Notes: generated by a model from the letters alone, not told the origin. A DNA stretch of 64,000 nt from an uncultured Pelagibacteraceae bacterium (GCA_902543575.1 CACBYV010000004.1:47558-111557), one strand, 5' to 3'. Shown: positions 1 through 48,132, numbered from the stretch's first letter. A program made the numbers and translations.

Positions 1-125
1 GCATCATCCTCGTTTTCAAAAGGCTGATTAAAAATTTGAAATTCATATTTTGAAGATAATTTTTTAAGATCAATAAAATCTTTTGCAATATTTTGATAAT
101 CGTCGAGTACAGCTACTTTATGCAT
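1..125 (-). CDS. partial CDS (N-terminus only): putative D-isomer-specific 2-hydroxyacid dehydrogenase family protein
   Basis: Minus-strand ATG at 125-123 reads MHKVAVLDDYQNIAKDFIDLKKL... and runs off the window. The xKxAVLDDYQ N-terminus is typical of this family. Only ~41 codons are visible. It overlaps the stop of the upstream gene by 8 nt. Confidence 0.4.
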   Translation of the reverse strand, partial: MHKVAVLDDYQNIAKDFIDLKKLSSKYEFQIFNQPFENEDD

Positions 126-1023
126 TTTTTTTGTTTGAAAGTAATATCCCTGAAATAATAAATATTCCACCGATATAATGATAAAATAATAATACCTCAT
201 CAAATATTATCATTGCAAGAATTGCTGCAAGAATTGGCATTAAATGTAAATAAATTCCTGCCCTATTAGCACCTATTAAAGCAACACCTTTTATCCAGAA
301 AAAGAAAGAAATGATACCAGGCAACAAAACAACATAAGATAAAACAAGAATGAAATTTGTATTAATTGTAATTCGATTACCAATGTAAATATAATCTATT
401 GCATACATTGGAATAAGAAATATTACACCAAGACCAATAACAACTTGAAGTAAAGTTATGGGAGATAATCCATAATTTTTTTTCTTTAAAAGAGCTGAGT
501 ATAGTGACCAGGATATCATTGCAAATAATGCAAATAAATCTCCTTTTTCAAAAGCTAAATTTTTAAAGACTTCAAAATCTGCTTTTGAAATTATAAATAA
601 TACACCCAACAAAGAAAATACAACTCCCAATACTTGAAAGGTATTTGTTTTTTCTATTTTTAAAATTATAGAAAATAAAATGATCATAACTGGAACAGTT
701 GAAATCATGAGCACACCCGTAATTACTTGTGTAGTTTTTAAAGAATAAAAAAGTGCTGAATTAAAAATACTGACTGCTGTTATCCCTAGAAAACATAAAA
801 GATAAATATTTTTAAAAATTAATTCTTTTTTTTCAATCATCTCTTTGTAAGTAATAGGTAGTAAAATTAGAAACGCTAATGACCACCTTAATATATTTAA
901 TGATATTGGGGGTATTTCATTTAAACCTGCTATTTTTCCAACAATAAAATTTCCTGACCAAAACAAAGCTGCCAAAAAAAGCAAAATCGATGCAATTATA
1001 ATATTACTTTTATTTTCAAGCAT
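118..1023 (-). CDS. EamA/DMT-superfamily permease (substrate unknown)
   Basis: 301 aa, about 10 hydrophobic helices in two halves, with composition and length typical of EamA/RhaT drug-metabolite transporters. Confidence 0.75.
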   Translation of the reverse strand: MLENKSNIIIASILLFLAALFWSGNFIVGKIAGLNEIPPISLNILRWSLAFLILLPITYKEMIEKKELIFKNIYLLCFLGITAVSIFNSALFYSLKTTQVITGVLMISTVPVMIILFSIILKIEKTNTFQVLGVVFSLLGVLFIISKADFEVFKNLAFEKGDLFALFAMISWSLYSALLKKKNYGLSPITLLQVVIGLGVIFLIPMYAIDYIYIGNRITINTNFILVLSYVVLLPGIISFFFWIKGVALIGANRAGIYLHLMPILAAILAMIIFDEVLLFYHYIGGIFIISGILLSNKKNA

Positions 1024-1050
1024 TAAATAGACTACTATAAAAGAGTGCTT

Positions 1051-2292
1051 TTAACTAAACCTTATTGAACTGTATGGTTGTAGATCTAAGTTAGTATTCT
1101 CACCTGAGATCATTTTAGATATGATTTTTCCTGATATTGCGCCAAGTGTCCAACCTAGGTGATGATGACCAAATGAATAAAAAACATTTTTATAATTTTT
1201 TGAAGGACCTAGAACTGGGAGAAAATCTGGCAACGTGGGTCTAAAACCAAGCCACTCATCTTTATGCTCTGGTAAACCATCTAGCATATCCTTTGCATTT
1301 AATATTAAGTTTTTTATTCTCGATTTAGATGGAGAGTTTTCTAAACCTCCGAATTCTACTGTTCCAACAACACGCAATCCCTGTTCCATTGGTGTCATTC
1401 CAAAACCTCTATTTGCATATACAATAGGTCTTGAAATTAAATGGTCGTAATCTTTAAAGTGAACATGGTAGCCTCTTTCAGTATCTAAAGGAATATTTTC
1501 ATGTAATTTATCAGTTAATCTTTTTGAAAATGCTCCGCATGCAATGACTAGTTTATCAAAAATAAATCTTTGCGTTTCTGTTCTAAGAACTGGTTTTTCT
1601 TCATCGAAATCTATATCTTGAATATTTAATTTTAAAAATTTTCCACCTTTATTTACAAAATTTTCAAATAATTTTATTAAAATTTTTCTTGGATTTCTTG
1701 CATGCCTTGCATAATCATAAAATACACCACCATGATAAAACGGTTTTAAGTTTGGTTCTAAATCATGAATTTCTTTTTTATTAACTAATTGTTGTTTTAC
1801 TCCTAACTGATCTCTAATTCTAATTTCCAATTCTCTACTCTTCATATTTTGATCAGTCCAAACATAAAGAATTCCGTTATTTTCAACTAACCCGCCTAAA
1901 TCTATTTCATCAAATAGTTCATCAAAAGCTGGTAATGATTGATCTAAAATTTGATGCATATTTTTTGCTGTATGCATCATTTTTTCTTCCCTACAATTTA
2001 AGATAAATCTTGCAAACCAAGGGATCATTTTAGGTACATAGTTCCATTTTAAAGCCAAAGGACCTCTCGAGCTTATTAACATCGAAGGAACATCTGCTAT
2101 GACATCCGGTCTGTTTAAAGGAACGGACGCATAAGGAGAAAAGTGACCAGCATTTCCATATGATGCTGCGCTTCCTGGTTCTTCTCTATCAAAAAGTGTT
2201 ACTTGATAACCTTTTTTTTGTAAAAACAAAGCATTACAAACACCTTGTATGCCAGCACCAACAATTCCAATTTTTAGATTTTTTTCATCCAC
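1051..2292 (-). CDS. FAD-dependent oxidoreductase, DAO family (D-amino-acid dehydrogenase-like)
   Basis: 413 aa. N-terminal Rossmann motif KIGIVGAGIQG followed by LFDRE. Length and C-terminal GHHHLGWTLG region resemble DadA/DAO enzymes. Confidence 0.8.
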   Translation of the reverse strand: MDEKNLKIGIVGAGIQGVCNALFLQKKGYQVTLFDREEPGSAASYGNAGHFSPYASVPLNRPDVIADVPSMLISSRGPLALKWNYVPKMIPWFARFILNCREEKMMHTAKNMHQILDQSLPAFDELFDEIDLGGLVENNGILYVWTDQNMKSRELEIRIRDQLGVKQQLVNKKEIHDLEPNLKPFYHGGVFYDYARHARNPRKILIKLFENFVNKGGKFLKLNIQDIDFDEEKPVLRTETQRFIFDKLVIACGAFSKRLTDKLHENIPLDTERGYHVHFKDYDHLISRPIVYANRGFGMTPMEQGLRVVGTVEFGGLENSPSKSRIKNLILNAKDMLDGLPEHKDEWLGFRPTLPDFLPVLGPSKNYKNVFYSFGHHHLGWTLGAISGKIISKMISGENTNLDLQPYSSIRFS

Positions 2293-2364
2293 ATTGTAAA
2301 TATATTTTCTAAGATTTGCTTATTATATATGATATTTGATCGCGGGTTTATTTTACTTAGATTA

Positions 2365-4515
2365 TTATTTACCTATAGATATTAAGGTTAAGTCGTCACT
2401 TAGCTTTTTATCGCCAGCAGTATTAATTACCGTATTTGATATATCTGATAATTGTTTGCTAGAATCTGTGTTAAAATTCTGCTCTATTATTTTTAATGAT
2501 CCATCTATTCCTATTTCTTCACCTGAACTATTTAAGCTTTCAGATAAACCATCAGTAAATGCATAAAACCTGTTATTTTCTAGCTTAACTTTGTGAGTTG
2601 TATAGACCGATTTATCCTTTTGAAGTATTACGCCCATAGGTGGTGAATTACTCTCAAATTGTTCATAACTTCCGGATGATGATCTAATTATAGCTGGCTG
2701 ATGACCACCATTTACCCATCTTAATTCATCAGTCCTCATATTATATTCTCCCAATATACTAGTAACAAACATACCTCCAGTTTTAGTTAAAAATAGGTCA
2801 TTATTCATATGAAACATCATTTCATCTGGATCTACTTGATCTCTAGACATAATCTCAAATAAAGTTGATGCTTTTGCCATCACCATTCCAGCATGAATTC
2901 CTTTCCCCGCAACATCTGCAATAATGAAGTAAACACTATCATTATGAGGATAAAAGCTGAAGAAGTCTCCAGAAACTTCTCTAGCAGCAATATTAATTCC
3001 ATGCACTGGGTAATTTTCTAAATTTCTTTTTGGTAAAAAGTTTTCTTGGACTTTTACTGCAAGTTTTACTTCATTTGAAATTCTGTCTCTCCACACTTTC
3101 CTTTCGGCTTCACTGGTTTCTAGTTTGTTCATTAATCTATTATAATAAAGACCGATTACGCCCCCAGCGGTAAATGGATCTTGAGGGCCTCTGATTGTTA
3201 AATCACCAGACTCAGATTGTTTTTCTAAAATTGTAATTAAATCATGTTCTACAGAAGTTGCATTGTGTTCTGCAATATTAAGCCCTAGCTCTTCATGCAG
3301 TGGACTTACTCTCAATGGATAAATGTAATTTAAAATTTTTAATAAAATATATGAACCAAAAAATGAAAATACACCAATTGAAACAATTCCAATAAATTGT
3401 ACTTTAATTTGTTCTAGTCTAGATAGTCCTGTTCCTAAAATTTCAAGATCACTAAACAAACCTACAGCAATAGTGCCCCAAACACCTGCTGCCAAATGAA
3501 CAGGCACGGCACCAACAACATCATCTATTTCAAATTTATTTAAAAATTCATTTACAAAAATTGCAACTACCGCTCCAATAATTCCAACGAATATTGAAGT
3601 CACTGATGTCATAGAATTACATCCTGCTGTGATTGCAACTAATCCTGCGAGTGGTCCAAGAATTACATAATAAGGATCTGGTTTTTTAAATAATGCAAAT
3701 GAAATTCCAAGACCCGTCAGTAATCCAAAAGAAGCAGCAAGAAATGTATTTATTAAAATTAGAGGAACAGCTTCATCCATTGCACCATTACTTCCACCAT
3801 TAAATCCAAACCATCCAAACCATAAAATTAAAGTTCCCAAAACTGCCAGAGGGAAACTTGAGCCTGTAAATTTTCCTTTATTTGCATCTGAATATTTTCC
3901 TATTCTCGGACCTAAAATTAAAACAGCTGATAAAGCAATCCAACCACCTACAGAATGAACTATTGTGCTTCCAGCAAAATCAACAAATCCAATATCTGTC
4001 AACCATCCAGTTGTTTTAACTTGTCCAGTTACTGCAAGTAATTGTCTTGTAGCATCAATATTATTTAAATAACTAGATGACCATGCCCAATGTCCAACAA
4101 TTGGATATATAATTCCTGTAGCTATAATTGTAATTATTAAATATCCGTTAAATTTCATTCTTTCAGCAACAGCACCTGAAACAATTGTTGCTGCTGTTGC
4201 AACAAACATTGCTTGAAAGACAAAGTAAGTCATGTATTCAGCTTGATCGGTTTTAAAAAAGAATAAATCAGTTCCAAAATAACCATTAAAACTTTTTCCA
4301 AACATTAAACCGAAACCAAATAGCCAAAAAATTACAACTGCAAGACCAAAGTCAGCAGCATTTTTAAGAGCAACGTTAATGCTATTTTTGTGCCTTGAGA
4401 GACCTGTTTCCATACACATAAAACCTGCTTGCATAATGAAAACAAGAATTGCACAATCTATAACCCAAAGGGTATCAACAAATGATTTTACTGACTCCAG
4501 ATCAACACTCTCCAT
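2365..4515 (-). CDS. ammonium transporter (Amt) domain fused to a PP2C/SpoIIE (RsbU-type) serine phosphatase domain
   Basis: 716 aa. N-terminal ~410 aa carry Amt signatures (MQAGFMCMETG, DFAGSTIVHSVGGW, AVPVHLAAGVWG). C-terminal ~220 aa carry PP2C/SpoIIE signatures (SGDFFSFY, IADVAGKGIHAG, GGMFVTS, FTDGLSES, DDLTLISIGK). Single uninterrupted frame. Confidence 0.85.
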   Translation of the reverse strand: MESVDLESVKSFVDTLWVIDCAILVFIMQAGFMCMETGLSRHKNSINVALKNAADFGLAVVIFWLFGFGLMFGKSFNGYFGTDLFFFKTDQAEYMTYFVFQAMFVATAATIVSGAVAERMKFNGYLIITIIATGIIYPIVGHWAWSSSYLNNIDATRQLLAVTGQVKTTGWLTDIGFVDFAGSTIVHSVGGWIALSAVLILGPRIGKYSDANKGKFTGSSFPLAVLGTLILWFGWFGFNGGSNGAMDEAVPLILINTFLAASFGLLTGLGISFALFKKPDPYYVILGPLAGLVAITAGCNSMTSVTSIFVGIIGAVVAIFVNEFLNKFEIDDVVGAVPVHLAAGVWGTIAVGLFSDLEILGTGLSRLEQIKVQFIGIVSIGVFSFFGSYILLKILNYIYPLRVSPLHEELGLNIAEHNATSVEHDLITILEKQSESGDLTIRGPQDPFTAGGVIGLYYNRLMNKLETSEAERKVWRDRISNEVKLAVKVQENFLPKRNLENYPVHGINIAAREVSGDFFSFYPHNDSVYFIIADVAGKGIHAGMVMAKASTLFEIMSRDQVDPDEMMFHMNNDLFLTKTGGMFVTSILGEYNMRTDELRWVNGGHQPAIIRSSSGSYEQFESNSPPMGVILQKDKSVYTTHKVKLENNRFYAFTDGLSESLNSSGEEIGIDGSLKIIEQNFNTDSSKQLSDISNTVINTAGDKKLSDDLTLISIGK

Positions 4516-4578
4516 CTTTTCCTCTAAGTTATTATAAAAAAGTATACATCATAGATAATAGATGCTCAAAATAGGTTA

Positions 4579-4824
4579 TTATTCTTTTTTCTTCCAAATA
4601 TAATAGAATATATAAGGAGATACAGCTGGGACTATCCCAAACCAAAACCATTCGTCCCATCTAAAGCTTTTATCTAGCATTGGACTTTTTAATCCATTCC
4701 ACCATGTTAAATAACCAATTAGAATTATCCAAGCTAAACTTATAGTTAAATAAATTTGAAAGTTTTTTGGTAAACCTCCAGAAAAGACTACTTTTACTTT
4801 TTCTAAAATTTCTTGGTAATTCAT
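4579..4824 (-). CDS. small Trp-rich membrane protein, unknown function
   Basis: 81 aa with two hydrophobic helices (IYLTISLAWIILIGYL, WFWFGIVPAVSPYIFYYIW). Lies 7 nt downstream of the second pilin gene on the same strand. No recognisable family. Confidence 0.45.
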   Translation of the reverse strand: MNYQEILEKVKVVFSGGLPKNFQIYLTISLAWIILIGYLTWWNGLKSPMLDKSFRWDEWFWFGIVPAVSPYIFYYIWKKKE

Positions 4825-4831
4825 AAAATCT

Positions 4832-5245
4832 CTAACAATTAGTTCTTACAAAAGTACCAATTGCTGTCATTGTTATTTGACAACTTCCACCAGTTTCTTT
4901 TGCAAAGACTTTAAAATTTGTTGCATCATTAGCAATACAAAGCTCATATCCCATTTCTTGAGTAATACTATCCGTGCCACCCAATAAATTAGTTTCTATT
5001 GCTGTTGAAGTCGAAGATGTTGGTGAGCATGATGTGCCGGTGCTATTTCTATAATACATACCATTATCAGAATAGTACTCTGTTTGGCCTAATGAGATTT
5101 GTTGCATAACATTTTCGGCGGATCTTTTTTTTGCAGAACTTACATATCCATTGTAGCTAACAATGCCTACCGCAGCTATTATTCCCAAAATTGCAACAAC
5201 CACCAAAAGCTCAATGAGGGTGAACCCTGAGCTTTTGGAAGTCAT
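4832..5245 (-). CDS. type IV pilin-like protein (second pilin paralog)
   Basis: 137 aa. Class III signal MTSKSSG|FTLIELLVVVAILGIIAAVG with Glu at +5. Cys pairs in the C-terminal half. Confidence 0.85.
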   Translation of the reverse strand: MTSKSSGFTLIELLVVVAILGIIAAVGIVSYNGYVSSAKKRSAENVMQQISLGQTEYYSDNGMYYRNSTGTSCSPTSSTSTAIETNLLGGTDSITQEMGYELCIANDATNFKVFAKETGGSCQITMTAIGTFVRTNC

Positions 5246-5267
5246 AAAATTTTATTCAGATTAAAAA

Positions 5268-5738
5268 TTACTCAACAGTAATTGTTTTTTCTAAAACATT
5301 CCCTGAAGTTGAACATTCAGAATCTACTGTAAAGCAAGTCTTTACATCAATTGAAGTTGTCGAAGCTGCATTTAAATTAACATATCCACCAGTTCCAGTT
5401 GAAGTGCTACTTCTTACTGCCAAAGCACTAGTTGCGTATGGATTTTTAAAATCAGCGAAGGGTCCGTCAGTTGCTGTAGCTGCAGTAATAACTTTAGCTG
5501 CTGTCTTACCGCTGCAAGTTAATTTACCCCCCATAGCTGTGCTTTCACCTAAATTACATTTTTGTAATTCAGCAGAAATATATTTAACAACGTTTGCATG
5601 GGTTGATTTTGCTGCTTGTTTTTTAGCTCCTGATGTGTAGCCAGAGTATGCAACAACACCAACTGCTGCAAGAATACCGATAATTGCTACTACGACTAAT
5701 AATTCTATAAGTGTGAAACCTTTATTATTTTTTTTCAT
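5268..5738 (-). CDS. pilA: type IVa major pilin
   Basis: 156 aa. Leader MKKNNKG|FTLIELLVVVAIIGILAAVG with Glu+5. C-terminal Cys-x7-Cys loop (KTCFTVDSEC). First gene of the pilin pair. Confidence 0.85.
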   Translation of the reverse strand: MKKNNKGFTLIELLVVVAIIGILAAVGVVAYSGYTSGAKKQAAKSTHANVVKYISAELQKCNLGESTAMGGKLTCSGKTAAKVITAATATDGPFADFKNPYATSALAVRSSTSTGTGGYVNLNAASTTSIDVKTCFTVDSECSTSGNVLEKTITVE

Positions 5739-5764
5739 AAGTTAAGATCCTATAATTAATAAAA

Positions 5765-5780
5765 ATATGTGTATACATAT
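5765..5780. repeat. 16-nt near-perfect palindrome ATATGTGTATACATAT in the pilA / STAS divergent intergenic region
   Basis: Read directly: 7 of 8 mirrored pairs are complementary. Function (operator?) is unproven, and AT-rich palindromes are common by chance here. Confidence 0.5.
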
Positions 5781-5879
5781 AAATTATATCTTTTAAAAGG
5801 CAATATCTATACTGTAATAGTATTCAAAATGGGTCATTTTTGTTGATTTAGCAAGGAAATTTAATAAATATTAATATTT

Positions 5880-6179
5880 ATGTCATATAAAGTTACAGAA
5901 GAGGGCAACATATCAACGGTTCACCTAGATGGTGAAATAGATATGGACGTAACTGAAAAAGCAAAAGAGATAATAATGCCTTTAATTGAGGCAAAAAAAG
6001 AAGTTCATCTTAATTTAAAAGAAGTTCAATACATGGACTCGTCTGGAATATCAGTTTTAATTGAAAGTCACCAAAAAGCAACTGAACTTGGAACAAAAGT
6101 TATTCTGAAAGAGATAAGTAAATCAGTTTTAAAAGTAATTATGATGGCAAAATTAGAACAAATTTTAAACTTGGACTAA
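5880..6179 (+). CDS. STAS-domain anti-sigma-factor antagonist (RsbV/SpoIIAA-like)
   Basis: 99 aa. Conserved YMDSSGISVL motif; the phospho-acceptor-equivalent Ser54 codon is at 6039-6041. Immediately followed by an RsbW-like kinase gene. Confidence 0.85.
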   Translation: MSYKVTEEGNISTVHLDGEIDMDVTEKAKEIIMPLIEAKKEVHLNLKEVQYMDSSGISVLIESHQKATELGTKVILKEISKSVLKVIMMAKLEQILNLD

Positions 6180-6182
6180 TTA

Positions 6183-6614
6183 ATGAATGTAGCGATCAAA
6201 TCTATAAAAGAACAAAGGGATTTTGTAGTAAGTTCTTCGAGTTTGAAGCAGGTTAGATCATTCTCAAGAGAAGTATTTGAAAAAGTAAATATTGATCAAG
6301 ATTTAAAAGACGAGTTAGTTTTAGCTATTGCAGAGGCTGCACAAAATATTGTCAAACATGCATATCAAGGTGAAGATACAGATGACAAAATGGAGATTAA
6401 AATTTCATTAGAAAAAGGACATCTTGAGATTGGTTTTTTTGACAAAGGAAGACCCGTAGAAGAAAAAAATGTAAGACATAGAAAAATTGATGATATTAAA
6501 CCAGGTGGATTAGGAACTTTTTTTATTCAACAAATAATGGATGCAGTAGTTTTTAAAGAAGGTGAGAAGCCATGGATAAATCATTTAGTCTTAACTAAAA
6601 ATTTAAACTCTTAA
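6183..6614 (+). CDS. anti-sigma regulatory serine kinase (RsbW/SpoIIAB-like GHKL ATPase)
   Basis: 143 aa. N-box AEAAQNIVKHAY, G1-like FFDKGRP, G2 box KPGGLGTFFIQQIMD. 3-nt gap after the STAS gene. Confidence 0.8.
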   Translation: MNVAIKSIKEQRDFVVSSSSLKQVRSFSREVFEKVNIDQDLKDELVLAIAEAAQNIVKHAYQGEDTDDKMEIKISLEKGHLEIGFFDKGRPVEEKNVRHRKIDDIKPGGLGTFFIQQIMDAVVFKEGEKPWINHLVLTKNLNS

Positions 6615-7852
6615 CCGCCAATAATTGCACCAACATTAAAGATTGGTGAATACATGGCGATCATCAATCCACCAATCATTGTTCCCATAAATACAATCAT
6701 GATCGGTTCAATTAAGCTAGACATATTGTCTACCGCTGTATCAAATTCCTCTTCATAGTAAGAAGATACTGAAGTAAACATTTCATCTAAATTTCCTGTT
6801 TGCTCACCAACAGAAATTAGCTGACTGAAGGTAGGTGGAAAAACTGGTTCTTTTAAAAATAATTTTGTAAGTGTGTCTCCTGAAAAAACTCCTTTTTTAA
6901 CATTTTCTAATGCTTGAGTTACAACATCGTTATTACTTACTTGTTTAGCGATTTCTATACTTTCTAAAAGGTTTACCCCTGCTGCACTAAGATTACCCAT
7001 TATTAATGCAATTCTAGCAATCAATGATTTTAAAATCATATCGCCAAAAACTGGCATTTTTAAAACTCGTTGGTGCCACTTGTATCTAATTGTAGGAATT
7101 TTAGTTGTAGTATATTTAAATATAACAAAACCTATTATTGATACTATTCCGAGTGTTAGTCCACCAGCACCTCTCATAAAATTACTTGCATTCATAATGA
7201 CAGCTGTTGGGGTAGGTAATGCAACACCCATTCCCTCATACATTTCAGCAAAAACTGGAACAACTTTAATTAACATGAACACCATGACAGTTATCGCAAC
7301 CGTAAACATAACTACTGGATAGGTTAATGCACTTTTAATTTTCTTTTTAACTTTTTCTCTTTTTTCTAATGAATCTACTAATTTTAATAGGAAATCATCA
7401 AGTTTACCGCTGGCCTCTCCAGCTTTAATCAAATTTATATAAATATTATCAAATATCTTTGGATATTTTTCAAAACATTTAGAAAGAGTTATACCACCTT
7501 CTAAACTTTTTCTAATATCTTCAATAATTTCTTTCATAGTAGGGTGTTCTATTTGGTCTCTAAGCATCGTTAAAACATTTAAAATTGGCAAACCTGCTTT
7601 TACCATTGTTGCAAATTGCTTAGAGAAAAGCATTACATCTGCTGGAGTGACTTTTTTCTTACCAAAAGAAAAGCCACTTTTTTTGCCCTTTTCTTTTTCG
7701 GCTTTTTTCTTTTTAACTTTGATTAAGTTTGTAATTATTATTTTTTGTTCTTTAAGTTTAAAAGAGGCTTCTTCTTGATTTATAGCCTCTATTTCACCTT
7801 CAATATATTTACCTGCAGATATTCCTTTATAAGAAAAAGTTTCGGCTGACAT
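6611..7852 (-). CDS. pilC: type IV pilus platform protein PilC (GspF family)
   Basis: 413 aa. Duplicated GspF-type cytoplasmic domains with three TM segments, C-terminal EPIMIVFMGTMIGGLMIAMYSPIF motif. Adjacent to pilB. Confidence 0.9.
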   Translation of the reverse strand: MSAETFSYKGISAGKYIEGEIEAINQEEASFKLKEQKIIITNLIKVKKKKAEKEKGKKSGFSFGKKKVTPADVMLFSKQFATMVKAGLPILNVLTMLRDQIEHPTMKEIIEDIRKSLEGGITLSKCFEKYPKIFDNIYINLIKAGEASGKLDDFLLKLVDSLEKREKVKKKIKSALTYPVVMFTVAITVMVFMLIKVVPVFAEMYEGMGVALPTPTAVIMNASNFMRGAGGLTLGIVSIIGFVIFKYTTTKIPTIRYKWHQRVLKMPVFGDMILKSLIARIALIMGNLSAAGVNLLESIEIAKQVSNNDVVTQALENVKKGVFSGDTLTKLFLKEPVFPPTFSQLISVGEQTGNLDEMFTSVSSYYEEEFDTAVDNMSSLIEPIMIVFMGTMIGGLMIAMYSPIFNVGAIIGG

Positions 7853-7855
7853 TTG

Positions 7856-9604
7856 CTACTCCATAGAGAGAACTCTATCATACTCTCTAAAATTAAGATC
7901 ACCTGTTAGAATTAATTCTCTTCCCATATCTTGCATTGTCCTAAACCCTTCATTTGAAGCAATTTCTTTAAGCTCAGGGGTTGTTGCTTTTCTTAGGATT
8001 GCCTCTTTAATTGGTTTTGTAACATTTAAAATTTCATAAATACCCATTCTACCTTTATAGCCAGTATCTTTACATTTAGGACAGCCACTACCCTTTTGAA
8101 CTTTTGCCCTTGAAGCCTGTTCAACTGTAAATCCCAAATCAGCTAAAGCCTTAGGTGTTATGTCTTCATCTGGCACTCTACACTCTGAGCAGGTTTTTCT
8201 TGCTAATCTTTGTGCCAAAACAAGTGAAACGGCTGCACTAATCAAATAATCGGGTGTTCCCATGTTTTGTAACCTTGTAATGGTACTTGGTGCATCATTA
8301 GTGTGAAGTGTGCTAAATACCAAGTGACCTGTTAAGGCTGCTTTCAATCCAATATCAACTGTTTCTTTATCCCTCATCTCACCAACTAGAATTATTTCTG
8401 GGTCTTGTCTTAAAAAAGATCTCAGGGCAGTAGAAAAGTTAAAACCAATATCATCTTTAATTTGAACTTGTCCAACACCATCCAATTCATATTCGACAGG
8501 ATCTTCCGCAGTTAAAATATTTAGGTGAGGTTTAGAAACTTCTTTTAGAATACTATAAAGTGTTGTTGTTTTACCTGATCCAGTAGGACCTGTTACAAGA
8601 ACCAAACCTTGTGTTCCATGAATTGCTTTTCTTAAATTTTTTAGATCCGTTTCTTCAAAATTTAGTTGCTCTAAACTAATATCTCCAGCATCTTTATTAA
8701 GAACCCTCATTACTATTCTTTCATTAGTTGCTGTTGGTAAAATCGAAAGACGAAGATCAACTACTTTGCCATCAATTTTAAAAGGTATTGCTCCATCCTG
8801 AGGCAATCTTCTCTCAGCAATATCTAGCTTACCCATAATTTTAAATCTTGTAACTACAGCGCCATAATTTGAATGAAGAAATTTTTTGAAATGTTCTTGT
8901 TCTTGTAGAATTCCATCAAGTCTATATCTAACTCTTGAAGTAAATCTATATGGTTCAATATGAATATCAGATACTCCTGATTTAATTGCTTCTGCTACTA
9001 CAGCTGTACTAAATTTTATAACCTCAGATTCATTTTCAATAGCTTCAATATCTTCCTCAGGTGGTTTTTCTAAAACTTCAGCCTGTTCATCAACATCGTA
9101 GTCAAAAGTTTTTGTTTTTTCTGCATTTGTTTGTCTGATGTCAGATATAGTTCTTTCACCATCAGCTAAAAGTTTATCAACGAAACTGGAAATATCTGAA
9201 ACTTTAGCTGCATGAAGCTCAATATCCATTTTTGTTATAGTTCTCAAATTCCTCATCAAACTTAATTTGGAAATATCTGAGATTGCTATATGCAAAACTT
9301 TGCCTTCAATTTTAAAAGGCGCAATAAAATTCATATTAATATAATTAGAAGGAAGTACTGCTTTTAGCTCATCAGTTACCTCAACTTTTGATAAATCAAT
9401 CACATCTAAAGATTGATCTTTAACGAGAAGATCTAAAATCTTTTCTTCATCGGTCAAGTTTAGTTCGAAGACAGCATCTAACTGAGATTTTTCACCATCC
9501 CCTGATATCTTTTTAATCTCAGCTAAATCTTTTCCAGAAATAATATCTTGGTCAATTAAGATATTAATCAAGTTTATTTCAGATTCTCTACTTATATTAA
9601 TCAT
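7856..9604 (-). CDS. pilB: type IV pilus extension ATPase PilB (GspE family)
   Basis: 582 aa. N-terminal T2SSE_N-like domain, Walker A GPTGSGKTT, Walker B ILVGEMRD, His box LVFSTLHTND, tetracysteine CSEC...CPKC. Confidence 0.92.
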   Translation of the reverse strand: MINISRESEINLINILIDQDIISGKDLAEIKKISGDGEKSQLDAVFELNLTDEEKILDLLVKDQSLDVIDLSKVEVTDELKAVLPSNYINMNFIAPFKIEGKVLHIAISDISKLSLMRNLRTITKMDIELHAAKVSDISSFVDKLLADGERTISDIRQTNAEKTKTFDYDVDEQAEVLEKPPEEDIEAIENESEVIKFSTAVVAEAIKSGVSDIHIEPYRFTSRVRYRLDGILQEQEHFKKFLHSNYGAVVTRFKIMGKLDIAERRLPQDGAIPFKIDGKVVDLRLSILPTATNERIVMRVLNKDAGDISLEQLNFEETDLKNLRKAIHGTQGLVLVTGPTGSGKTTTLYSILKEVSKPHLNILTAEDPVEYELDGVGQVQIKDDIGFNFSTALRSFLRQDPEIILVGEMRDKETVDIGLKAALTGHLVFSTLHTNDAPSTITRLQNMGTPDYLISAAVSLVLAQRLARKTCSECRVPDEDITPKALADLGFTVEQASRAKVQKGSGCPKCKDTGYKGRMGIYEILNVTKPIKEAILRKATTPELKEIASNEGFRTMQDMGRELILTGDLNFREYDRVLSME

Positions 9605-11154
9605 TATAAAATTCTTGGTGCAATAAATACTAAAAGCTCATCTAGATTATCAGAGTTTGCTTTGCCTTTAAAGAGATTGCCTATCACAGGCATATTTCCT
9701 ATTGCAGGAACTTGATTTTTGTTATTTGCAATCACATTTTTCTTAATACCACCAATTACAACTATATCTCCATCTGCAACTAGTAATTTAGTTACAATTT
9801 CCATTTTATTAATCGGAGGTTCGTCAGATGAAGCTGTTCTATTTGGTGTATCGTTATTCACTTGAATAGTGAGTAGAACATTTCCATCACCAATGATACT
9901 CGGAGTTACTTCTAATTTTAAAGCCGCTTCTTTAAAAGAAGTTGATGTAGTCCCGTCAGATGTAGTTTGGTAAGGGATTTCCTCACCTTGAGTAACTGTT
10001 GCAACTTGATTATCTAAAGTAAATACCTTTGGATTTGAAATTGTTTTACCCATACCCATGCTTTCTAGTGCAGTAATCTCTGCTTTTAAAACTCCAGAGC
10101 CTGTTCTTCTTAAAATACCTATTCCACTTGTTGCTCCAGTTACTGGGAAATTAGACAATGTATCTGAAACACTACCTAATCCAGCACCATCTCCAGGAAC
10201 AGTTCCAAGCTCACTTCCTGAACTTGTACCCGCAACACCTCCTGCAATATTTCCAGCTCTATTATAATATCCACCAAGTCTAGCACCTAAAGCTCTTTCA
10301 AAATCTGAATTTGCTTCTACTATAAAAGCTTCAATTAAAACTTGTTTTGTTCTTATATCAATTTCTTTAATAACTTTATCAACAACATCTAAGTCTTTTT
10401 CCTTACCTCTTACTATAATTGATCTTGTAGTTACCTCTTCTGTTATTTGTATTGGCGTGTAAGAACTTTCTCCTGTAGTGGATGTAAATAATTCTTCAAT
10501 TGTAGATTTTGCTTGCTTCGGTGTTATATAATATAGTCTAAATATCTCTGAATATATTGGTTCAACACTGTCTTCTAATTCAACTTTCTTTTTTACAGCT
10601 TGTGCCCTTTCAGATTTATAAGTTTCTTGAGCGGTTAAAGTTTCTGGTGAGTGTACTCTTATTAAATTACTTGCAACATCCACATCAGATGCATAATTTT
10701 TCATATCTAACAAAGCCTGAAAGGCTTTATCCCATGGTACATCAATTAATTCTGCTGATATAGCCCCAGCTACTTCATCTCCAACTAAAACATTAATCTC
10801 TCCAATTTTACCCATTAATTTCATAGTTTCTTTATAATCTAAGTTCTTAAATTTAAGTGTTACTCTTTGTTTTAATAATGGGTAGTCGTCTGGAATAATT
10901 AAATAATTTCTTTGAGCTTCAGAAGATATTTTTTTTCTTTTGCCTAATTTTTTTCCATCTCCTTCAATTGGTTTAGGTCCCATTTCAAGAGTTTTTGATA
11001 TTTCTGATTGTCCTGATTTTACAACATCTTTATTTTTTATAAGAGGAACATTGTGTTTAAAAGGCTTGTCATATTTTTTCATATTTTGACATGCGTTAAG
11101 CACAAACAAAAATAAAACTAAACCAATATATGTAGATATTTTTTTAATAATCAT
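9604..11154 (-). CDS. pilQ: type IV pilus secretin PilQ (short form)
   Basis: 516 aa. Signal peptide ending VLNAC. Secretin core VLIEAFIVEA ... VPAIGNMPVIGNLFKG ... ELLVFIAPRIL. Confidence 0.88.
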   Translation of the reverse strand: MIIKKISTYIGLVLFLFVLNACQNMKKYDKPFKHNVPLIKNKDVVKSGQSEISKTLEMGPKPIEGDGKKLGKRKKISSEAQRNYLIIPDDYPLLKQRVTLKFKNLDYKETMKLMGKIGEINVLVGDEVAGAISAELIDVPWDKAFQALLDMKNYASDVDVASNLIRVHSPETLTAQETYKSERAQAVKKKVELEDSVEPIYSEIFRLYYITPKQAKSTIEELFTSTTGESSYTPIQITEEVTTRSIIVRGKEKDLDVVDKVIKEIDIRTKQVLIEAFIVEANSDFERALGARLGGYYNRAGNIAGGVAGTSSGSELGTVPGDGAGLGSVSDTLSNFPVTGATSGIGILRRTGSGVLKAEITALESMGMGKTISNPKVFTLDNQVATVTQGEEIPYQTTSDGTTSTSFKEAALKLEVTPSIIGDGNVLLTIQVNNDTPNRTASSDEPPINKMEIVTKLLVADGDIVVIGGIKKNVIANNKNQVPAIGNMPVIGNLFKGKANSDNLDELLVFIAPRIL

Positions 11155-11593
11155 CTGCCTCTCTTAATTGATTATTAAAATCAATAATCATATATTTACC
11201 ATCATCTTTTTTAAAGATAGCTTCTGTTAATCTTAAATCAACTAATTGAATTGGCCCTAAATATTGTCCAAGTGTAAGAGTTAAAACTTCTCCTCCAGAA
11301 TTAACTAATGAAATATAACTATGATCTTTACCTGAAATCAAACCTACTAATTTAAAATTATATAAGCTCAATTCATTTTCTTGCTCTTCTTCTGGTATAT
11401 TTCCTGACATCGAGCTAGTTCCTTCATTGCCAGCAAATGGATCATTTAAAGGAACTTCGTCTTCTTCTTGTAATTCTTTAGCGATTTCTTTTGCAGCGTC
11501 TAACACTTCTTGTTTTTGATCATGATTATCTGCAAAAGAAGTTTTCGATATTAAAAGAAATATTAATATGAATAATATTTTAGAAAAATTCAT
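11144..11593 (-). CDS. pilP: PilP-like pilus assembly protein
   Basis: 149 aa. Cleavable signal peptide (SKTSFA|DN), acidic linker, small C-terminal beta domain. Called mainly from its position between pilO and pilQ, with overlaps on both sides. Confidence 0.5.
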   Translation of the reverse strand: MNFSKILFILIFLLISKTSFADNHDQKQEVLDAAKEIAKELQEEDEVPLNDPFAGNEGTSSMSGNIPEEEQENELSLYNFKLVGLISGKDHSYISLVNSGGEVLTLTLGQYLGPIQLVDLRLTEAIFKKDDGKYMIIDFNNQLREADDY

Positions 11594-12218
11594 TTGGTAA
11601 ACCTACAATTGTTAATTCTCCAGTTGCAACTATCGCTCCAGTTGAATCGTTTTGTACTACACTTATAGTCTCTTTGTCAAAATTTAACATTTTATTCTGT
11701 CTAGACACTGCTCTTTTAAACTTAATGTAACCTAAGAAATTTCCCTTAATTTCATAATCTACTGGAATTTTGTAGTACGAGACCATTTCTTTTGTCAGAT
11801 TATTTTCTGCTTGATCTGTGACCCCGCCTTTTAAGACTGGTTTTGGTTTTTTCTTTTCAATTTTAGAAATCACAAGACCATTTACTGCAGCGTATTTACT
11901 AAGGCTCTGATATAGATCTTCAACTTCAGCTTTTGAATGAAATAAAGTTGATGTTTTTTCAAAGTCAGGTTTCATTTTTTTAATTCTTGCTTTGAAAGTA
12001 ATTATCTCATTTTCAAATTGTGCAATTTCATTTTGCTTTAAAATTTTATCATTATATTTTGCTTTTCTTTCTTTAACCATCGGATTTAAAATGATGTAAT
12101 AAATAATTAAAAATAATATGATTGCTCCAAAACCAGAGCCGAATTTAATTAAAGTTTTCTTTTCAACAGAAGCTAGCTTCTGTTTTAAATCATCCATTGT
12201 AATATTTTTTAAATCCAT
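11580..12218 (-). CDS. pilO: PilO-like pilus assembly protein
   Basis: Single N-terminal TM (FGAIILFLIIYYIIL), coiled coil, C-terminal domain. I prefer the ATG at 12218, which forms a TAATG overlap with the pilMN stop. The ORF track extends to a TTG at 12239. Confidence 0.6.
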   Translation of the reverse strand: MDLKNITMDDLKQKLASVEKKTLIKFGSGFGAIILFLIIYYIILNPMVKERKAKYNDKILKQNEIAQFENEIITFKARIKKMKPDFEKTSTLFHSKAEVEDLYQSLSKYAAVNGLVISKIEKKKPKPVLKGGVTDQAENNLTKEMVSYYKIPVDYEIKGNFLGYIKFKRAVSRQNKMLNFDKETISVVQNDSTGAIVATGELTIVGLPNEFF

Positions 12219-13936
12219 TAAACGCTCTCCAATACACAAGCTATTTTAAAGCCCTTCATAGTTTGCGAATTTTGCTGTTCATTAGGTAATGTCATGCTCG
12301 CTAAAGATGCTTGCGATATAAGCTTCTTATTATTTAAATTACTAATGAGTTTTAAAATGTCTTGATCGCTAAATGCTGATCCTTCGATTATAACTAGGTC
12401 TGCCCCATTATATTCTATAGACTTAAACTTAACTCTTTTAGGTACTGCTGATGCAATTTGAGCCAAAACTCTGAAACTTACAGTTTTATTTGACTTAATT
12501 GATTTGCTAAGTTGCAAAGATTTTAAAATAATTCCAATTTCTTTAGCATACTTATTTTTCTCTAAAGTTTTTAATTCATGAGTTTGGACAATTTCATCGT
12601 AATCGACAATTTTTTTATTTAAATCAGTTATTTGCCAAAAAGCGAAACCAAAAAGTACAATGTATATAACTGCAACAATTCCAACAACTCCTTTGAAAGC
12701 AAAATTTGAAAAAGCTTTTGCCTTTTTTTGCGCAATCATATTTTCTCTATTAGGTAATAAGTTTATATTCTTAACTGCGGTTACAAATTTATAGTATCCA
12801 AATACATCAAGTTTTCTAAATGCCAATCCCATCACAGTTGAAAAATATGAACGATTGTCAATTTTTACATCGTTTTCTAATTGAGCAGGAATTTTAATTC
12901 CTTCAAATGGATCAAATAAATTATATCCTGTATTGACCATATTTTTTCTAAAGCTGCCTAAATAGTCTTCTACATTTTGCAAATTAGATACTACTTTTAA
13001 GTTTCTAATCCTTTTTTCATATTTCTGTTCAAAATCCTGCACAGCTTGTTTAACTTGAGTCATGTATCTTCTTACTAAAGCGTCCATTTCCTCTTGGTTA
13101 TTACTTTCTTGGAGTGTTTTTCTATCCTGTGATCTTATAAAAATATCCGTTATGATTGGATTGTTCTCATATAGTATCATTACATAATTCTCATCTAGAC
13201 CAAATTCCAAAACTGCTGTTAAATTAGAATCTTCAATGGATCCTGCAATTTGATTAATTTGATCTACTGCAGATTTTAGTGCAAAACATTTAACATCAAT
13301 AATTACTGCATTAAGCCCACCTTTTTTAATAATATCTGTGTAGCTATTTATGTCTGATAGCTTTGAAGCTACAAATAAAATATCCATAGTATTTCCAGTT
13401 TTGTCTCTATTAATTACTTGATGAAAAATTGAATAATCATTTAAATTATCAGTTAACTGAACTAAATTTTCCCATAGTGAGTCTGTATCTATTGCTTTTT
13501 TTAATTCTTCATCAGTCATTAAAGGTGCGGTAACTACTCTTATAATTGCACTAGTGACTGGAATTGCTATTGCAGCATTTGTTGTTGTAATTTTCGATTT
13601 TTGTAAGGCTAATTTTAATTCATCAGCGACTTTATCTGGATTTTCTAAAACTGTTCCATTTTCAGGTAAGCCTTCAAATTTATGTACATAAAATCTATCT
13701 AATACCCATTGATTAGCCTTGTTACTTGAAACTTGTGATAATCTTATTTCATTAGATGTTAATTCAACACCTAAAATCTCTTCTCCTTTTATAGCTTGCT
13801 TGCCTAGCCTCTTTTTTAAAAATTTATCAAAAAATCCCTCTTTCTTCTTTTTGCCATCAGCTGCCTGAGGAACTGGAGGTGTATTGCCCTGTTCCTTACT
13901 TTTCTTTTTGAATAGGTTTGCAAAAGGATTTTTCAT
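12218..13936 (-). CDS. pilM: PilM-PilN fusion protein
   Basis: 572 aa. Actin-like PilM region starts at about aa 53 (ILGVELTSNEIRL). The PilN signature INLLP (aa 391-395, nt 12766-12752) is followed by the TM helix GVVGIVAVIYIVLFGFAFW and a PilN-like periplasmic part. Confidence 0.8.
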   Translation of the reverse strand: MKNPFANLFKKKSKEQGNTPPVPQAADGKKKKEGFFDKFLKKRLGKQAIKGEEILGVELTSNEIRLSQVSSNKANQWVLDRFYVHKFEGLPENGTVLENPDKVADELKLALQKSKITTTNAAIAIPVTSAIIRVVTAPLMTDEELKKAIDTDSLWENLVQLTDNLNDYSIFHQVINRDKTGNTMDILFVASKLSDINSYTDIIKKGGLNAVIIDVKCFALKSAVDQINQIAGSIEDSNLTAVLEFGLDENYVMILYENNPIITDIFIRSQDRKTLQESNNQEEMDALVRRYMTQVKQAVQDFEQKYEKRIRNLKVVSNLQNVEDYLGSFRKNMVNTGYNLFDPFEGIKIPAQLENDVKIDNRSYFSTVMGLAFRKLDVFGYYKFVTAVKNINLLPNRENMIAQKKAKAFSNFAFKGVVGIVAVIYIVLFGFAFWQITDLNKKIVDYDEIVQTHELKTLEKNKYAKEIGIILKSLQLSKSIKSNKTVSFRVLAQIASAVPKRVKFKSIEYNGADLVIIEGSAFSDQDILKLISNLNNKKLISQASLASMTLPNEQQNSQTMKGFKIACVLESV

Positions 13937-15078: not shown

Positions 15079-15706
15079 AGGTTTTACTATTTTAGAATTG
15101 CTAGTTGTTATAACAATTGTAGCAATTGTATCAGCTATTGGTTATCCAAATTTTATGAAGTGGAGAGAAGATAGAGAGATACGTGCTGCAATGGAGTCAG
15201 CAGCAACAATGTTATCTTCAATTAATAATTTATCACAAAGAGGCAATTTCCCTTTTGTTCAATTAAAAATTACACCTAATGGAACAACTAATACAACAAT
15301 AACAAGTAAAGGTATGAATGTTAAAACTTTATCTACAAGATTAAATAGTGGGAGTGTAATTGACTGCAATTTAACAAATAGTGGTTATTGGGATAATCAT
15401 TTGGTAGATAAAACCACAAAAGATGTATCAACACATATTAATGCTGAGGGCTCAGTTTGTTTTTCGCAGGATGGCACTCATTACAAAACTTTAGGTAAAT
15501 TAAATTCAAATGTAAATGTTACTGTAGAAGGTAGGATTACTAATCAATATTTAATCATTTGTTCAACATCTAATGCATCAGGCAGTGGCAAATGTCCCAC
15601 CAATCAGGCAGACGGTTTGAAACAACCCGCATATTTGGTAGAGTGGACAAGATTTGGTAACATAAGCAAATTTAAATGGAGTGGTAGTGGTTGGAATAGA
15701 CAATAA
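15056..15706 (+). CDS. minor pilin, FimT/GspH-like
   Basis: 216 aa. GTG start, prepilin leader MQQDQNIKG|FTILELLVVITIVAIV with Glu+5. First of four consecutive prepilin-like genes after pilT. Confidence 0.7.
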   Translation: MQQDQNIKGFTILELLVVITIVAIVSAIGYPNFMKWREDREIRAAMESAATMLSSINNLSQRGNFPFVQLKITPNGTTNTTITSKGMNVKTLSTRLNSGSVIDCNLTNSGYWDNHLVDKTTKDVSTHINAEGSVCFSQDGTHYKTLGKLNSNVNVTVEGRITNQYLIICSTSNASGSGKCPTNQADGLKQPAYLVEWTRFGNISKFKWSGSGWNRQ

Positions 15707-47813: not shown

Positions 47814-47855
47814 GAATAATTTATTGAATCTATTGAATTTGGTTTTATATTATTA

Positions 47856-48115: not shown

Positions 48116-48132
48116 AAAAAAATATTTGTTTT

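Follow-up and report, generated by a model that had tools for sequence, protein, structure and literature searches.

A gene that fuses an ammonium transporter (Amt) module through a HAMP-like linker to a PP2C-type phosphatase domain lies at 2365..4515 on the minus strand of the window, by which is meant the whole 64,000-nucleotide stretch of DNA analyzed here (GCA_902543575.1 CACBYV010000004.1:47558-111557). The window comes from an uncultured Pelagibacteraceae bacterium of the SAR11 clade, is of 'Candidatus Pelagibacter' origin and has a GC content of ∼30%. Taken as a whole, the product of this gene is probably best explained as a membrane-bound ammonium receptor whose output, a phosphatase, resets a STAS/RsbW partner switch. 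Sequence comparison supports assignment of the Amt half to the ammonium-receptor (AmR) type and of the phosphatase half to the partner-switching (SpoIIE/RsbU) type, the latter being intact. A connection of the PP2C domain to STAS and RsbW is most likely, given conserved gene linkage, Rosetta-stone fusions and the published phosphorylation of STAS Ser54 in vivo (PMC13198564). The same three lines of evidence support an earlier, sequence-only reading of the window (the initial annotation), which had proposed the neighboring STAS protein as the likely substrate.

Receptor-type Amt module, linker and phosphatase in one protein

ORF calling and Pfam searches confirmed a single unbroken open reading frame (ORF) of 716 codons, from ATG to stop, with the architecture Amt-linker-PP2C. 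The initial annotation had described this reading frame without giving its strand, which was found to be the minus strand, and every motif quoted there is present. The N-terminal half carries MQAGFMCMETG (amino acid (aa) 28), DFAGSTIVHSVGGW (aa 179, containing His187) and AVPVHLAAGVWG (aa 336, containing His340), and the C-terminal half carries SGDFFSFY (aa 515), IADVAGKGIHAG (aa 532), GGMFVTS (aa 580), FTDGLSES (aa 653) and DDLTLISIGK (aa 707). Pfam Ammonium_transp (PF00909) matched aa 17-420 (E 2.7e-111; 372 bits, cut-off 23). Pfam SpoIIE (PF07228) matched aa 526-714 (E 2.2e-34; 119.5 bits, cut-off 25), the alignment spanning positions 3-189 of the 192 in the profile. The NCBIfam model TIGR00836 ('amt') scored 393 bits against a cut-off of 343.

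That the fusion might be an assembly, frameshift or annotation artefact merging two separate genes, a concern raised in the initial annotation, can be dismissed with near certainty, and this explanation was rejected with no point found in its favor. A protein-database search covering NCBI, ENA, JGI, TARA and Logan assemblies returned at least 120 independent clusters (≥90% identity) of full-length homologs of 715-716 aa, all containing both PF00909 and PF07228. In the most distant ortholog, identity was 58% in the Amt segment, 47% in the linker and 51% in the PP2C segment, a pattern of parallel divergence between lineages, and a scan of genome collections located full-length copies in at least five Pelagibacteraceae species. 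The identical architecture is also present in isolates of Leptospira, in cyanobacteria and in SAR324, and the AlphaFold2 (AF2) model of the full-length protein is confident and continuous through the fusion (predicted local distance difference test score (pLDDT) of 85.2). A length of 716 aa has, in addition, been reported independently (PMC11796062).

The Amt module (aa 17-420; 3256..4467, minus strand), delimited by PF00909 and by alignment to Sd-Amt1, has 11 transmembrane (TM) helices in the AF2 model. The initial annotation had read this domain as a candidate ammonium sensor, a view in keeping with the identity of its closest relatives of solved structure, the two ammonium receptors characterized by experiment. 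In a sequence search of the Protein Data Bank, Sd-Amt1 from Shewanella denitrificans (8qj3, 8qj4, 8qpf) scored 390 bits and Ks-Amt5 from 'Ca. Kuenenia stuttgartiensis' (6eu6) 291 bits, followed by the assimilatory Af-Amt1 (153 bits) and EcAmtB (∼108 bits). Identity to Sd-Amt1 is 47.2% across 400 aa, and the top Foldseek matches of the full-length AF2 model were 8qj4, 8qj3 and 6eu6, with target TM-scores of 0.93-0.94. Pflueger et al. define ammonium receptors of this kind by a lateral N1/N2 pocket, which lies beneath the twin-His pair and holds two NH4+ ions, and by a Lys/Tyr pair that switches upon binding (PMC11152129).

Identical residues were found in the fusion protein at 16 of the 17 Sd-Amt1 positions checked, the exit residue (Asn269 in Sd-Amt1) being the one that differs. 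The selectivity path comprises the W145/S242 vestibule, the F104/F238 Phe gate and the H187/H340 twin-His pair, which align with W139, S225, F98, F221, H169 and H323 of Sd-Amt1. The N1/N2 pocket and its access are formed by Q29, F32, E36, N52, D55, F56, T110 and S113, and the switch pair by K51/Y125. In a HMMER alignment to 8qj3, these are identical to, and in register with, Q22, E29, N45, D48, F49, T104 and S107 of the Sd-Amt1 pocket, access residue F25 and switch pair K44/Y119. Across an alignment of 61 Amt-PP2C sequences from SAR11, Leptospira, cyanobacteria and others, the receptor residues are invariant except at F56 (54 of 61, with Leu in seven) and S242 (Ser in 60 of 61). Three unfused Pelagibacteraceae Amts served as a control; they keep the pore residues but carry the replacements Q29A, D55L/K at the N2 ligand, T110S and Y125F. 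The Amt module of the fusion protein is predicted to bind ammonium.

Sd-Amt1 is an Amt-HAMP-GGDEF protein and shares with the SAR11 fusion, besides 47% identity in the Amt module, the filter, N1/N2 and switch residues, a predicted layout of short helix, connector and long helix, and the problem of coupling a trimeric sensor to a dimeric output. It differs in that the SAR11 output is a PP2C domain rather than a diguanylate cyclase, in having Asn269 in place of Leu286, and in lacking a 12-residue periplasmic insertion. The insertion, of ∼12 residues relative to Sd-Amt1 and specific to SAR11, falls in a periplasmic loop at aa 148-166 (window ∼4018-4074, minus strand) and is the sole segment of the AF2 model with a pLDDT below 50. 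Ks-Amt5 (6eu6; PMC5764959) belongs to the same Amt subfamily, has the N1/N2 pocket and a C-terminal signaling module (target TM-score 0.93), and histidine kinase fusions of its kind make up most of the close relatives of the SAR11 protein. In contrast to the latter, Ks-Amt5 feeds a two-component pathway through a histidine kinase, and its residues equivalent to F56 and S113 are both Thr, the switch Lys being replaced by Arg.

Between the two domains, the initial annotation had placed a linker of ∼90 aa. This is present and, according to the models, structured (3037..3252, minus strand): both AF2 predictions, of the full-length protein and of the cytoplasmic part alone (pLDDT ∼85 in each case), show a HAMP-like helix (aa 422-436), a 13-residue connector (aa 437-449, GDLTIRGPQDPFT) and an unbroken 44-residue signaling helix (aa 450-493) that runs into the phosphatase. 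Non-SAR11 PP2C fusions share the juxtamembrane consensus SGDLxLRxPVEPFTEVGxIAxRYNxVMxSL, and that of the kinase fusions is very similar. Lineages differ in the length of the signaling helix by an indel of exactly seven residues, and seven-residue length steps are typical of coiled-coil signaling helices. The predicted layout agrees with the published AF2 model of Sd-Amt1, and the published model of the SAR11 protein Amt-GI5 likewise has a 'HAMP-like' linker (PMC11796062). RsbU is dimerized and activated through an alpha-helical linker, as described by Ho and Bradshaw, who consider this linker-dimer mechanism general to PPM, histidine kinase and GGDEF outputs (PMC12143880). These are the same three output types that are seen on the receptor-type Amt subfamily.

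The PPM/PP2C domain of the SpoIIE/RsbU subfamily occupies aa 496-716 (2368..3030, minus strand), in agreement with the ∼220 aa originally claimed and as judged by PF07228, invariant Asp motifs and Foldseek. The initial annotation had asked whether a significant PP2C match or the metal-binding Asp residues might be missing; the PF07228 match and all of these Asp motifs were found. The motifs include D517 (SGD), D534/G537/G539 (ADVAGKG), D655/G656 (TDG) and D707/D708 (DDLT), of which D517, D534, D655 and D707/D708 are taken here, from established knowledge of PPM enzymes, to be the metal ligands. All four acidic motifs (GD, D-x-G-x-G, DG and DD) are invariant across the 61 Amt-PP2C sequences. 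A profile search aligned them with VSGDSYS, SDGMGNG, SDGI and DDMT of SpoIIE and also with SiaA, RssB of P. aeruginosa and Rv1364c, and the profile alignment of the domain extends to RsbX. Most family members carry a second Asp after the GD motif, but SpoIIE itself has Ser there, and the Ser520 found in the SAR11 protein is therefore not regarded as a defect.

Modeled separately by AF2 (pLDDT 84.7), the cytoplasmic part has a PPM beta-sandwich with flanking helices, preceded by the alpha-helical linker. Foldseek matched it to RssB (3eq2/3f79), SiaA (6k4e), RsbX (3w40), Rv1364c (3ke6) and SpoIIE (5ucg) at E values of 1e-15 to 1e-10, the best compact structural match being the PP2C domain of SiaA (target TM-score 0.85; root-mean-square deviation 2.6 Å). 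All five of these proteins belong to STAS-type or related phospho-switches.

Linkage to a STAS/RsbW partner switch

The STAS gene that had been placed at 5880-6179, 1.4 kb from the fusion gene, is real. It lies on the plus strand and encodes a single-domain protein of the anti-sigma-antagonist type, the predicted substrate of the phosphatase (PF01740, E 2.6e-16; TIGR00377 above its cut-off). Its candidate phospho-acceptor, Ser54/Ser55, is in the motif YMDSSG (codons 6039-6044), which aligns with YMDSTG of RsbV and FMDSSG of SpoIIAA. Directly 3′ of it is a gene for an RsbW-type serine kinase and switch protein (6183-6614, plus strand; HATPase_c_2, PF13581, E 2.8e-20), the product of which aligns to B. 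subtilis RsbW (6m36_A) through the Asn-box and the GGLG ATP-binding motifs. The NCBIfam RsbW equivalog model gave 51.9 bits against a cut-off of 145, so the protein is RsbW-like and not an RsbW ortholog.

Phosphorylation has already been recorded for orthologs of this STAS protein. In the phosphoproteome of strain HTCC1062, phospho-Ser54/55 was reported in the YMDSSG motif of the STAS paralogs AAZ20880 and AAZ20881 (PMC13198564, supplementary table 3), with 1199 peptide-spectrum matches for one STAS phosphopeptide, and the STAS protein of the window is identical to this phosphosite in both residues and numbering. The same study counted 1014 Ser/Thr/Tyr phosphosites on 555 proteins, named RsbW (SAR11_0057) as the only Ser/Thr kinase of HTCC1062, and listed no annotated phosphatase predicted to act on proteins (PMC13198564). 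The PP2C domains that are contained within 'ammonium transporter' annotations appear to have been overlooked in that work. Also phosphorylated in HTCC1062 are a pilin (AAZ20879; pT97/pT99), PilB (AAZ20884; pT543) and RsbW itself (AAZ20882; pS2, pS76) (PMC13198564), and pilus components may themselves be targets of the kinase/phosphatase pair.

Linkage was assessed in 80 metagenome loci anchored on RsbW, the denominator in each case being the loci long enough to tell. STAS was directly upstream of RsbW in all 71, PilC was convergent and downstream in 70 of 71, and a pilin was upstream in all 53. The initial annotation had called for a survey of the Amt-SpoIIE architecture and its co-occurrence with STAS/RsbW genes. 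Such co-occurrence is seen in the presence of Amt-PP2C on the pilin side of RsbW in 14 of the 15 metagenome loci whose contigs reach at least 3 kb, and by kinase fusions with STAS genes nearby. The order STAS, RsbW, PilC, PilB and PilQ, together with pilins and Amt-PP2C, is kept in Pelagibacteraceae genomes down to 80% identity (L001-L004). In a lineage with an ortholog of only 55% identity (L085/L086) the order is rearranged (PilQ, PilB, PilC, pilin, small ORF, Amt-PP2C, globin, PilD, ORF, STAS, RsbW), with the gene set still together.

Outside SAR11, Rosetta-stone fusions place the Amt module, the phosphatase and an RsbW-type kinase domain in a single chain, with the architectures Amt-PP2C-HATPase_c_2, Amt-PAS-PP2C-HATPase_c_2 and Amt-GAF-PAS-PP2C-HATPase_c_2 (examples are P0124, P0308 and P0320). 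STAS genes encoding proteins of ∼110 aa accompany these kinase fusions, 14 nucleotides downstream in one locus (L087), as a tandem pair just upstream in two (L090/L091) and ∼2.6 kb upstream in another (L089). On these grounds, the STAS protein of the window is presumed to be the substrate of the PP2C domain. An ATP-grasp gene (PF24923/PF18105) was also observed just upstream of the fusion or STAS genes in two separate lineages of these fusions (L089, 3510-4772; L090, 2441-4024) and may be part of the output of the system there. Separately, a tandem duplication of STAS was noted in two Pelagibacteraceae genomes (L003, 8210-8787; L004, 5580-6157), the second copy being ∼58-64% identical to the STAS protein of the window, which has a single copy.

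A second phosphatase gene of the window encodes a GAF-PP2C protein of 429 aa (29718-31007, plus strand; PF07228, E 3e-42, plus GAF). Its sequence is 34.5% identical to aa 470-714 of the fusion protein and retains every catalytic Asp. This protein is a candidate second input phosphatase, which would probably give the switch two inputs or more. The gene is divergent from that for the prepilin peptidase PilD (28785-29549, minus strand), and both PP2C genes of the window adjoin pilus genes. A third PP2C-like region, ∼32% identical to the phosphatase half of the fusion protein, was seen in one related genome (L003, 16154-16924), ∼4 kb beyond Amt-PP2C.

The arrangement resembles several characterized switches. 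With RsbU-RsbV-RsbW and SpoIIE-SpoIIAA-SpoIIAB of Bacillus it shares the PPM Pfam family, a STAS protein with a DSSG/DSTG motif, an adjacent HATPase_c_2 kinase and a helical linker (PMC12143880); the Bacillus inputs are RsbT/the stressosome or are linked to FtsZ, whereas the SAR11 input is a membrane Amt and a target of the sigma-B or sigma-F type is absent. The Rsb system of Chlamydia trachomatis (PMC11619594) likewise operates in a reduced genome without sigma-B, uses a membrane sensor PP2C that reads an extracytoplasmic metabolite, and has one RsbW and two STAS proteins (RsbV1/RsbV2), as do some SAR11 strains. It differs in that a periplasmic domain senses 2-oxoglutarate or phosphoenolpyruvate and in that the output is the housekeeping factor sigma-66. 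SiaABCD of Pseudomonas aeruginosa (6k4e; PMC7647112, PMC8457831) also combines a membrane-anchored PP2C, SiaA, and a kinase, SiaB, with a phospho-switch output other than a sigma factor, but with another sensor module, with a SiaC protein that is no canonical STAS antagonist and with the output cyclase SiaD encoded in the same operon. In Rv1364c of Mycobacterium tuberculosis (3ke6), PP2C is fused to an RsbW-type kinase, as in the three Rosetta-stone examples named above; unlike these, Rv1364c is cytoplasmic, has a PAS input and includes a STAS domain in the same chain (PAS-PP2C-RsbW-STAS).

The pilus island and the wider family

On the minus strand, the fusion gene is preceded by two type IV prepilin genes (5268-5738, 156 aa, and 4832-5245, 137 aa; PF07963 N_methyl, TIGR02532) and an 81-aa ORF, and is followed by genes for a DAO-family oxidoreductase and an EamA transporter. 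STAS and RsbW are divergent from the pilins, and PilC (6611-7852; Pfam T2SSF), the PilB ATPase (7856-9604; Pfam T2SSE and MshEN) and the PilQ secretin (9604-11154; Pfam Secretin), all on the minus strand, are then convergent. A few kb past this cluster lie a second T2SSE-family ATPase (∼14341-15048, plus strand), ∼30-36% identical to PilB, and, just after it, a pilin-like N-terminal sequence (∼15077-15226, plus strand).

The 81-aa ORF (4579..4824, minus strand) has no Pfam match and contains two hydrophobic stretches, predicted by eye to be TM helices. It is found at the same position, with 58-99% identity, in SAR11 loci that reach that far, including one without the fusion gene (L147); it was not detected in L003/L004, and its position is taken in the distant lineage L085 by an ORF of 111 aa that is unrelated to it and has a GMxCxxC-like motif. 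An AGAGGA ribosome-binding site is located just 5′ of the ATG at 4515, between it and a promoter-like sequence, TTGAGC-17-TATACT (4541..4569, minus strand), which is weak and a consensus match only; in the promoter scan, promoter-like sites were rarer than in shuffled sequence. A terminator scan gave no convincing terminator between the pilin genes and the fusion gene. An Rfam scan of the whole window detected no riboswitch near the fusion gene, its sole match being an alphaproteobacterial two-piece (permuted) tmRNA (47820-48118, plus strand; RF01849, 229 bits).

The pilins are hypervariable, with 43-72% identity in most loci in which the flanking genes exceed 90%. Among the 80 metagenome contigs (loci L092-L171), 26 stop 1.5-2.4 kb upstream of RsbW, within the pilins, which suggests assembly breaks caused by pilin diversity at the population level.

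The slot that holds Amt-PP2C contains zero to two copies among SAR11 loci. One type A copy is present in the window and in most loci, one type B copy (∼54% identical to type A) in two loci (L165, L005), and types A and B in tandem in three (L100, L110, L170). In a further locus (L147) the slot has no copy, the DAO-family oxidoreductase is also missing, and the EamA gene abuts the small ORF. Type B proteins keep all N1/N2, switch and catalytic residues and have Ala at the position of the vestibule Ser and Thr at 286. The tandem arrangement of types A and B is inferred to correspond to SAR11_0049/0050 of HTCC1062.

An exhaustive search of 1.84 billion representatives (50% identity) was made, and the best 150 were analyzed. 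These were 526-1673 aa long, with no unfused Amt among them; 11 had PP2C domains. In a sample of 47 of those without PP2C, HATPase_c was found in 35, HisKA in 30 and a receiver domain in 17, along with PAS, GAF, GGDEF and EAL. A search with a profile of non-SAR11 members gave both Amt and PP2C domains in all 120 of the matches listed, which included many cultured Leptospira species, filamentous cyanobacteria (as Amt-PAS-PP2C), SAR324 and Spirochaetota; nearly all were named 'ammonium transporter'. In the non-SAR11 loci examined, including those of Leptospira, SAR324 and the kinase-fusion lineages, the Amt-PP2C genes were not adjacent to pilus genes, so the link to pili, if real, is lineage-specific.

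Proposed mechanism and alternative readings

In the mechanism proposed, external NH4+ would be selected by the normal Amt filter of Trp/Ser vestibule, Phe gate and twin-His pair and, as in Sd-Amt1 and Ks-Amt5, diverted to the lateral two-ion N1/N2 pocket (E36, N52, D55, T110, S113) rather than efficiently conducted. Occupancy of the pocket would flip Lys51/Tyr125 and shift TM11, the last TM helix, at its cytoplasmic end, and the movement would be relayed by the HAMP-like helix-loop-helix and the 44-residue coiled-coil-type helix to the RsbU/SpoIIE-type PP2C domain. Activation of the latter would probably involve pairing of two of the three protomers, altering metal binding and activity. Active PP2C would dephosphorylate Ser54 of STAS, which the adjacent RsbW kinase would rephosphorylate, and the GAF-PP2C protein encoded beside pilD would provide a second input. 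Unphosphorylated STAS would capture RsbW and so free whatever RsbW otherwise holds. By analogy with Ks-Amt5 and Sd-Amt1, in which ammonium turns the output on, ammonium would be expected to favor dephosphorylated STAS.

A number of observations weigh against this mechanism. The GAF-PP2C protein could itself be the main STAS phosphatase. Amt-PP2C is absent from one SAR11 locus (L147) in which STAS, RsbW and the pilus genes are retained, and the fusion is consequently regarded as an accessory rather than an essential input. Synteny is high among SAR11 genomes in general, which weakens arguments from gene order within the clade. A distance of 5-8 kb separates the STAS genes of Leptospira and SAR324 from Amt-PP2C, and this linkage was rejected as too weak. 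The published receptor signature, QX6EX15NX2D[F/T]X54-60TX2[S/T], matches the fusion protein with a spacer of 53 and has no match at 54-60; the difference of one residue sits in a loop in which Sd-Amt1 carries a one-residue insertion.

The exit residue is a further point of this kind, in that Asn269, which narrows the exit in Sd-Amt1 (Ser251 in Af-Amt1), is Leu286 in the fusion protein; to judge from the sequence, this may leave ammonium transport possible. Position 286 is Leu or Ile in SAR11 type A, Thr in type B, as in Ks-Amt5, and Asn in 48 of 49 non-SAR11 fusions. The published signature does not include this position, and Asn was rejected as a marker of the absence of transport because unfused SAR11 Amts have it as well. 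Pfam HAMP (PF00672) gave no match on the SAR11 linker even at E ≤10, and homolog segments reached 23.1 bits (P0122; cut-off 25), 15.6 (P0393) and 12.7 (P0126). The linker is for this reason named only HAMP-like, its structure being a helix-connector-helix of ∼50 residues without a profile match. Finally, no sigma factor was present among the Pfam-scanned genes of the locus (118-12239), and since only sigma-70 and sigma-32 are reported in SAR11 (PMC13198564), the classical anti-sigma output is missing.

In one alternative, Amt would still import ammonium, with the PP2C domain acting on the transporter or on nearby transport proteins. Such a self-regulating transporter, or transceptor, would fit the intact pore residues, the Leu in place of the Asn that narrows the Sd-Amt1 exit, the fact that some unfused Amts with the N1/N2 signature are known transporters (PMC11152129), and the control of plant AMT1 proteins by CIPK23 and ABI1 (PMC9516733). 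It is nevertheless unlikely. Characterized members of the SpoIIE/RsbU subfamily act on STAS proteins, the closest characterized relatives bind ammonium rather than transport it, and the Rosetta-stone fusions are to RsbW-type kinases with STAS genes adjacent. SAR11 also has separate, unfused Amts: under N limitation, AmtB and Amt respond, and protein levels of SAR11_0049/0050 are unchanged (PMC3870248).

A broader role for the PP2C domain, as a general Ser/Thr phosphatase acting on many of the ∼1000 phosphosites with STAS as one, or as a non-preferred, substrate, is a decidedly unlikely one. It would account for the number of sites in a cell for which one Ser/Thr kinase is annotated and a protein phosphatase is not (PMC13198564), and for the phosphorylation of pilin, PilB and RsbW as well. 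Membrane tethering and coupling to a sensor, on the other hand, better suit a dedicated switch, SpoIIE-family PPMs are typically substrate-specific, and the gene is flexible, being present in zero to two copies and absent from some genomes. Least expected to hold of the readings that accept a sensor is one in which the ligand is not ammonium but, for example, methylammonium or another small amine, the two paralog types then having different ligands. The handling of methylated amines by some SAR11 Amts was a speculation of Smith et al. (PMC3870248), and such a reading could draw on the tandem occurrence of the ∼54%-identical types in some genomes, the Ala of type B at vestibule position Ser242 and the SAR11-specific periplasmic loop insertion. 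Its improbability follows from the filter and N1/N2 ligands, which in both paralog types are identical to those of ammonium-specific receptors.

For an ammonium receptor that resets the STAS/RsbW switch, three outputs can be considered. The fixed place of the switch between the pilins and PilC in SAR11 suggests a pilus component; the housekeeping or heat-shock sigma factor is a candidate by analogy with RsbW/sigma-66 of Chlamydia; and STAS itself may be the effector, by analogy with SiaC. We infer that the switch most likely tunes pilus production or use to the ammonium supply in SAR11. This idea fits the proposal of Freel et al., who found pilus genes in the genome of a SAR11 bacterium of N-limited water and suggested that DNA uptake for nitrogen may be what the pilus serves (PMC12789548). 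In an extended form, the Amt-receptor phosphatase and GAF-PP2C would together set STAS/RsbW and, through it, the pilus island, such that external ammonium gates the scavenging of DNA and nucleotides for N, with zero to two receptor copies tuning ecotypes; this form is tentative, and its holding in full is doubtful.

Parts of this system have been described before. McDonald et al. 2010 noted the SpoIIE Pfam domain on Pelagibacter AMT2.2 and AMT2.3 (PMC2944026). Amt-GI5, described in Microbiome in 2025 as a 716-aa, single-gene flexible island in six of 64 gMED single-cell genomes, was assigned an IPR001932 phosphatase domain joined at a junction modeled by AF2 as a 'HAMP-like domain' and was equated with SAR11_0049/0050 (PMC11796062). 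It is evidently of the same family as the gene studied here and probably the same ortholog, and its authors wrote that it 'points towards an ammonium sensor', by analogy with Amts fused to histidine kinases and diguanylate cyclases (PMC11796062). They further stated that, within the marine data they used, the fusion seems to be exclusive to SAR11, that the genomes have no other phosphatase domains and that the biological role could not be assessed. The statements on exclusivity and on other phosphatase domains are contradicted by the non-SAR11 Amt-PP2C members and by GAF-PP2C, respectively. Their paper identified no cognate partner, in contrast to the STAS/RsbW switch, the GAF-PP2C paralog and the non-SAR11 members found here, and pili, STAS and anti-sigma factors go unmentioned in it, even though the island numbered next, GI-6, has 27 genes and is labeled 'type IV secretion' (PMC11796062).

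The novelty claimed in the initial annotation appears to stand for the route to STAS; the fusion and its reading as an ammonium sensor had already been published (PMC2944026, PMC11796062). No paper describing an Amt-PP2C-STAS pathway was found in the open-access literature, and the route from Amt through PP2C to STAS appears to be undescribed. What is new is the connection to the partner switch, the GAF-PP2C protein, the variation between zero and two copies and the spread to Leptospira, cyanobacteria and SAR324. The PII/NtrBC-independent nitrogen response of SAR11 cited in the initial annotation is confirmed by the literature (PMC3870248).

For the family, the analysis indicates that an ammonium-receptor chassis of Amt and HAMP-like linker drives all three major bacterial outputs, namely histidine kinase, diguanylate cyclase and PPM phosphatase, and that the annotation of hundreds of these proteins, from Leptospira, cyanobacteria and SAR324, names a transporter and nothing more. 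Members of SAR11 rank first in abundance among the heterotrophs of the surface ocean, are often N-limited and are without the standard PII/NtrBC machinery. If the proposed mechanism is true, they would possess a route from sensing to the pilus of a previously undescribed kind. It would bridge three separate gaps: the pangenome study proposed a sensor, Amt-GI5, with no partner (PMC11796062); the phosphoproteome study described one Ser/Thr kinase, RsbW, and abundant phospho-proteins with 'no' protein phosphatase (PMC13198564); and the isolate-genome study reported that the pilus island is enriched in N-poor water but could name no regulation for it (PMC12789548). The hidden PP2C domains and their linkage to STAS/RsbW within the pilus island join these into a concrete hypothesis for culturable strains.

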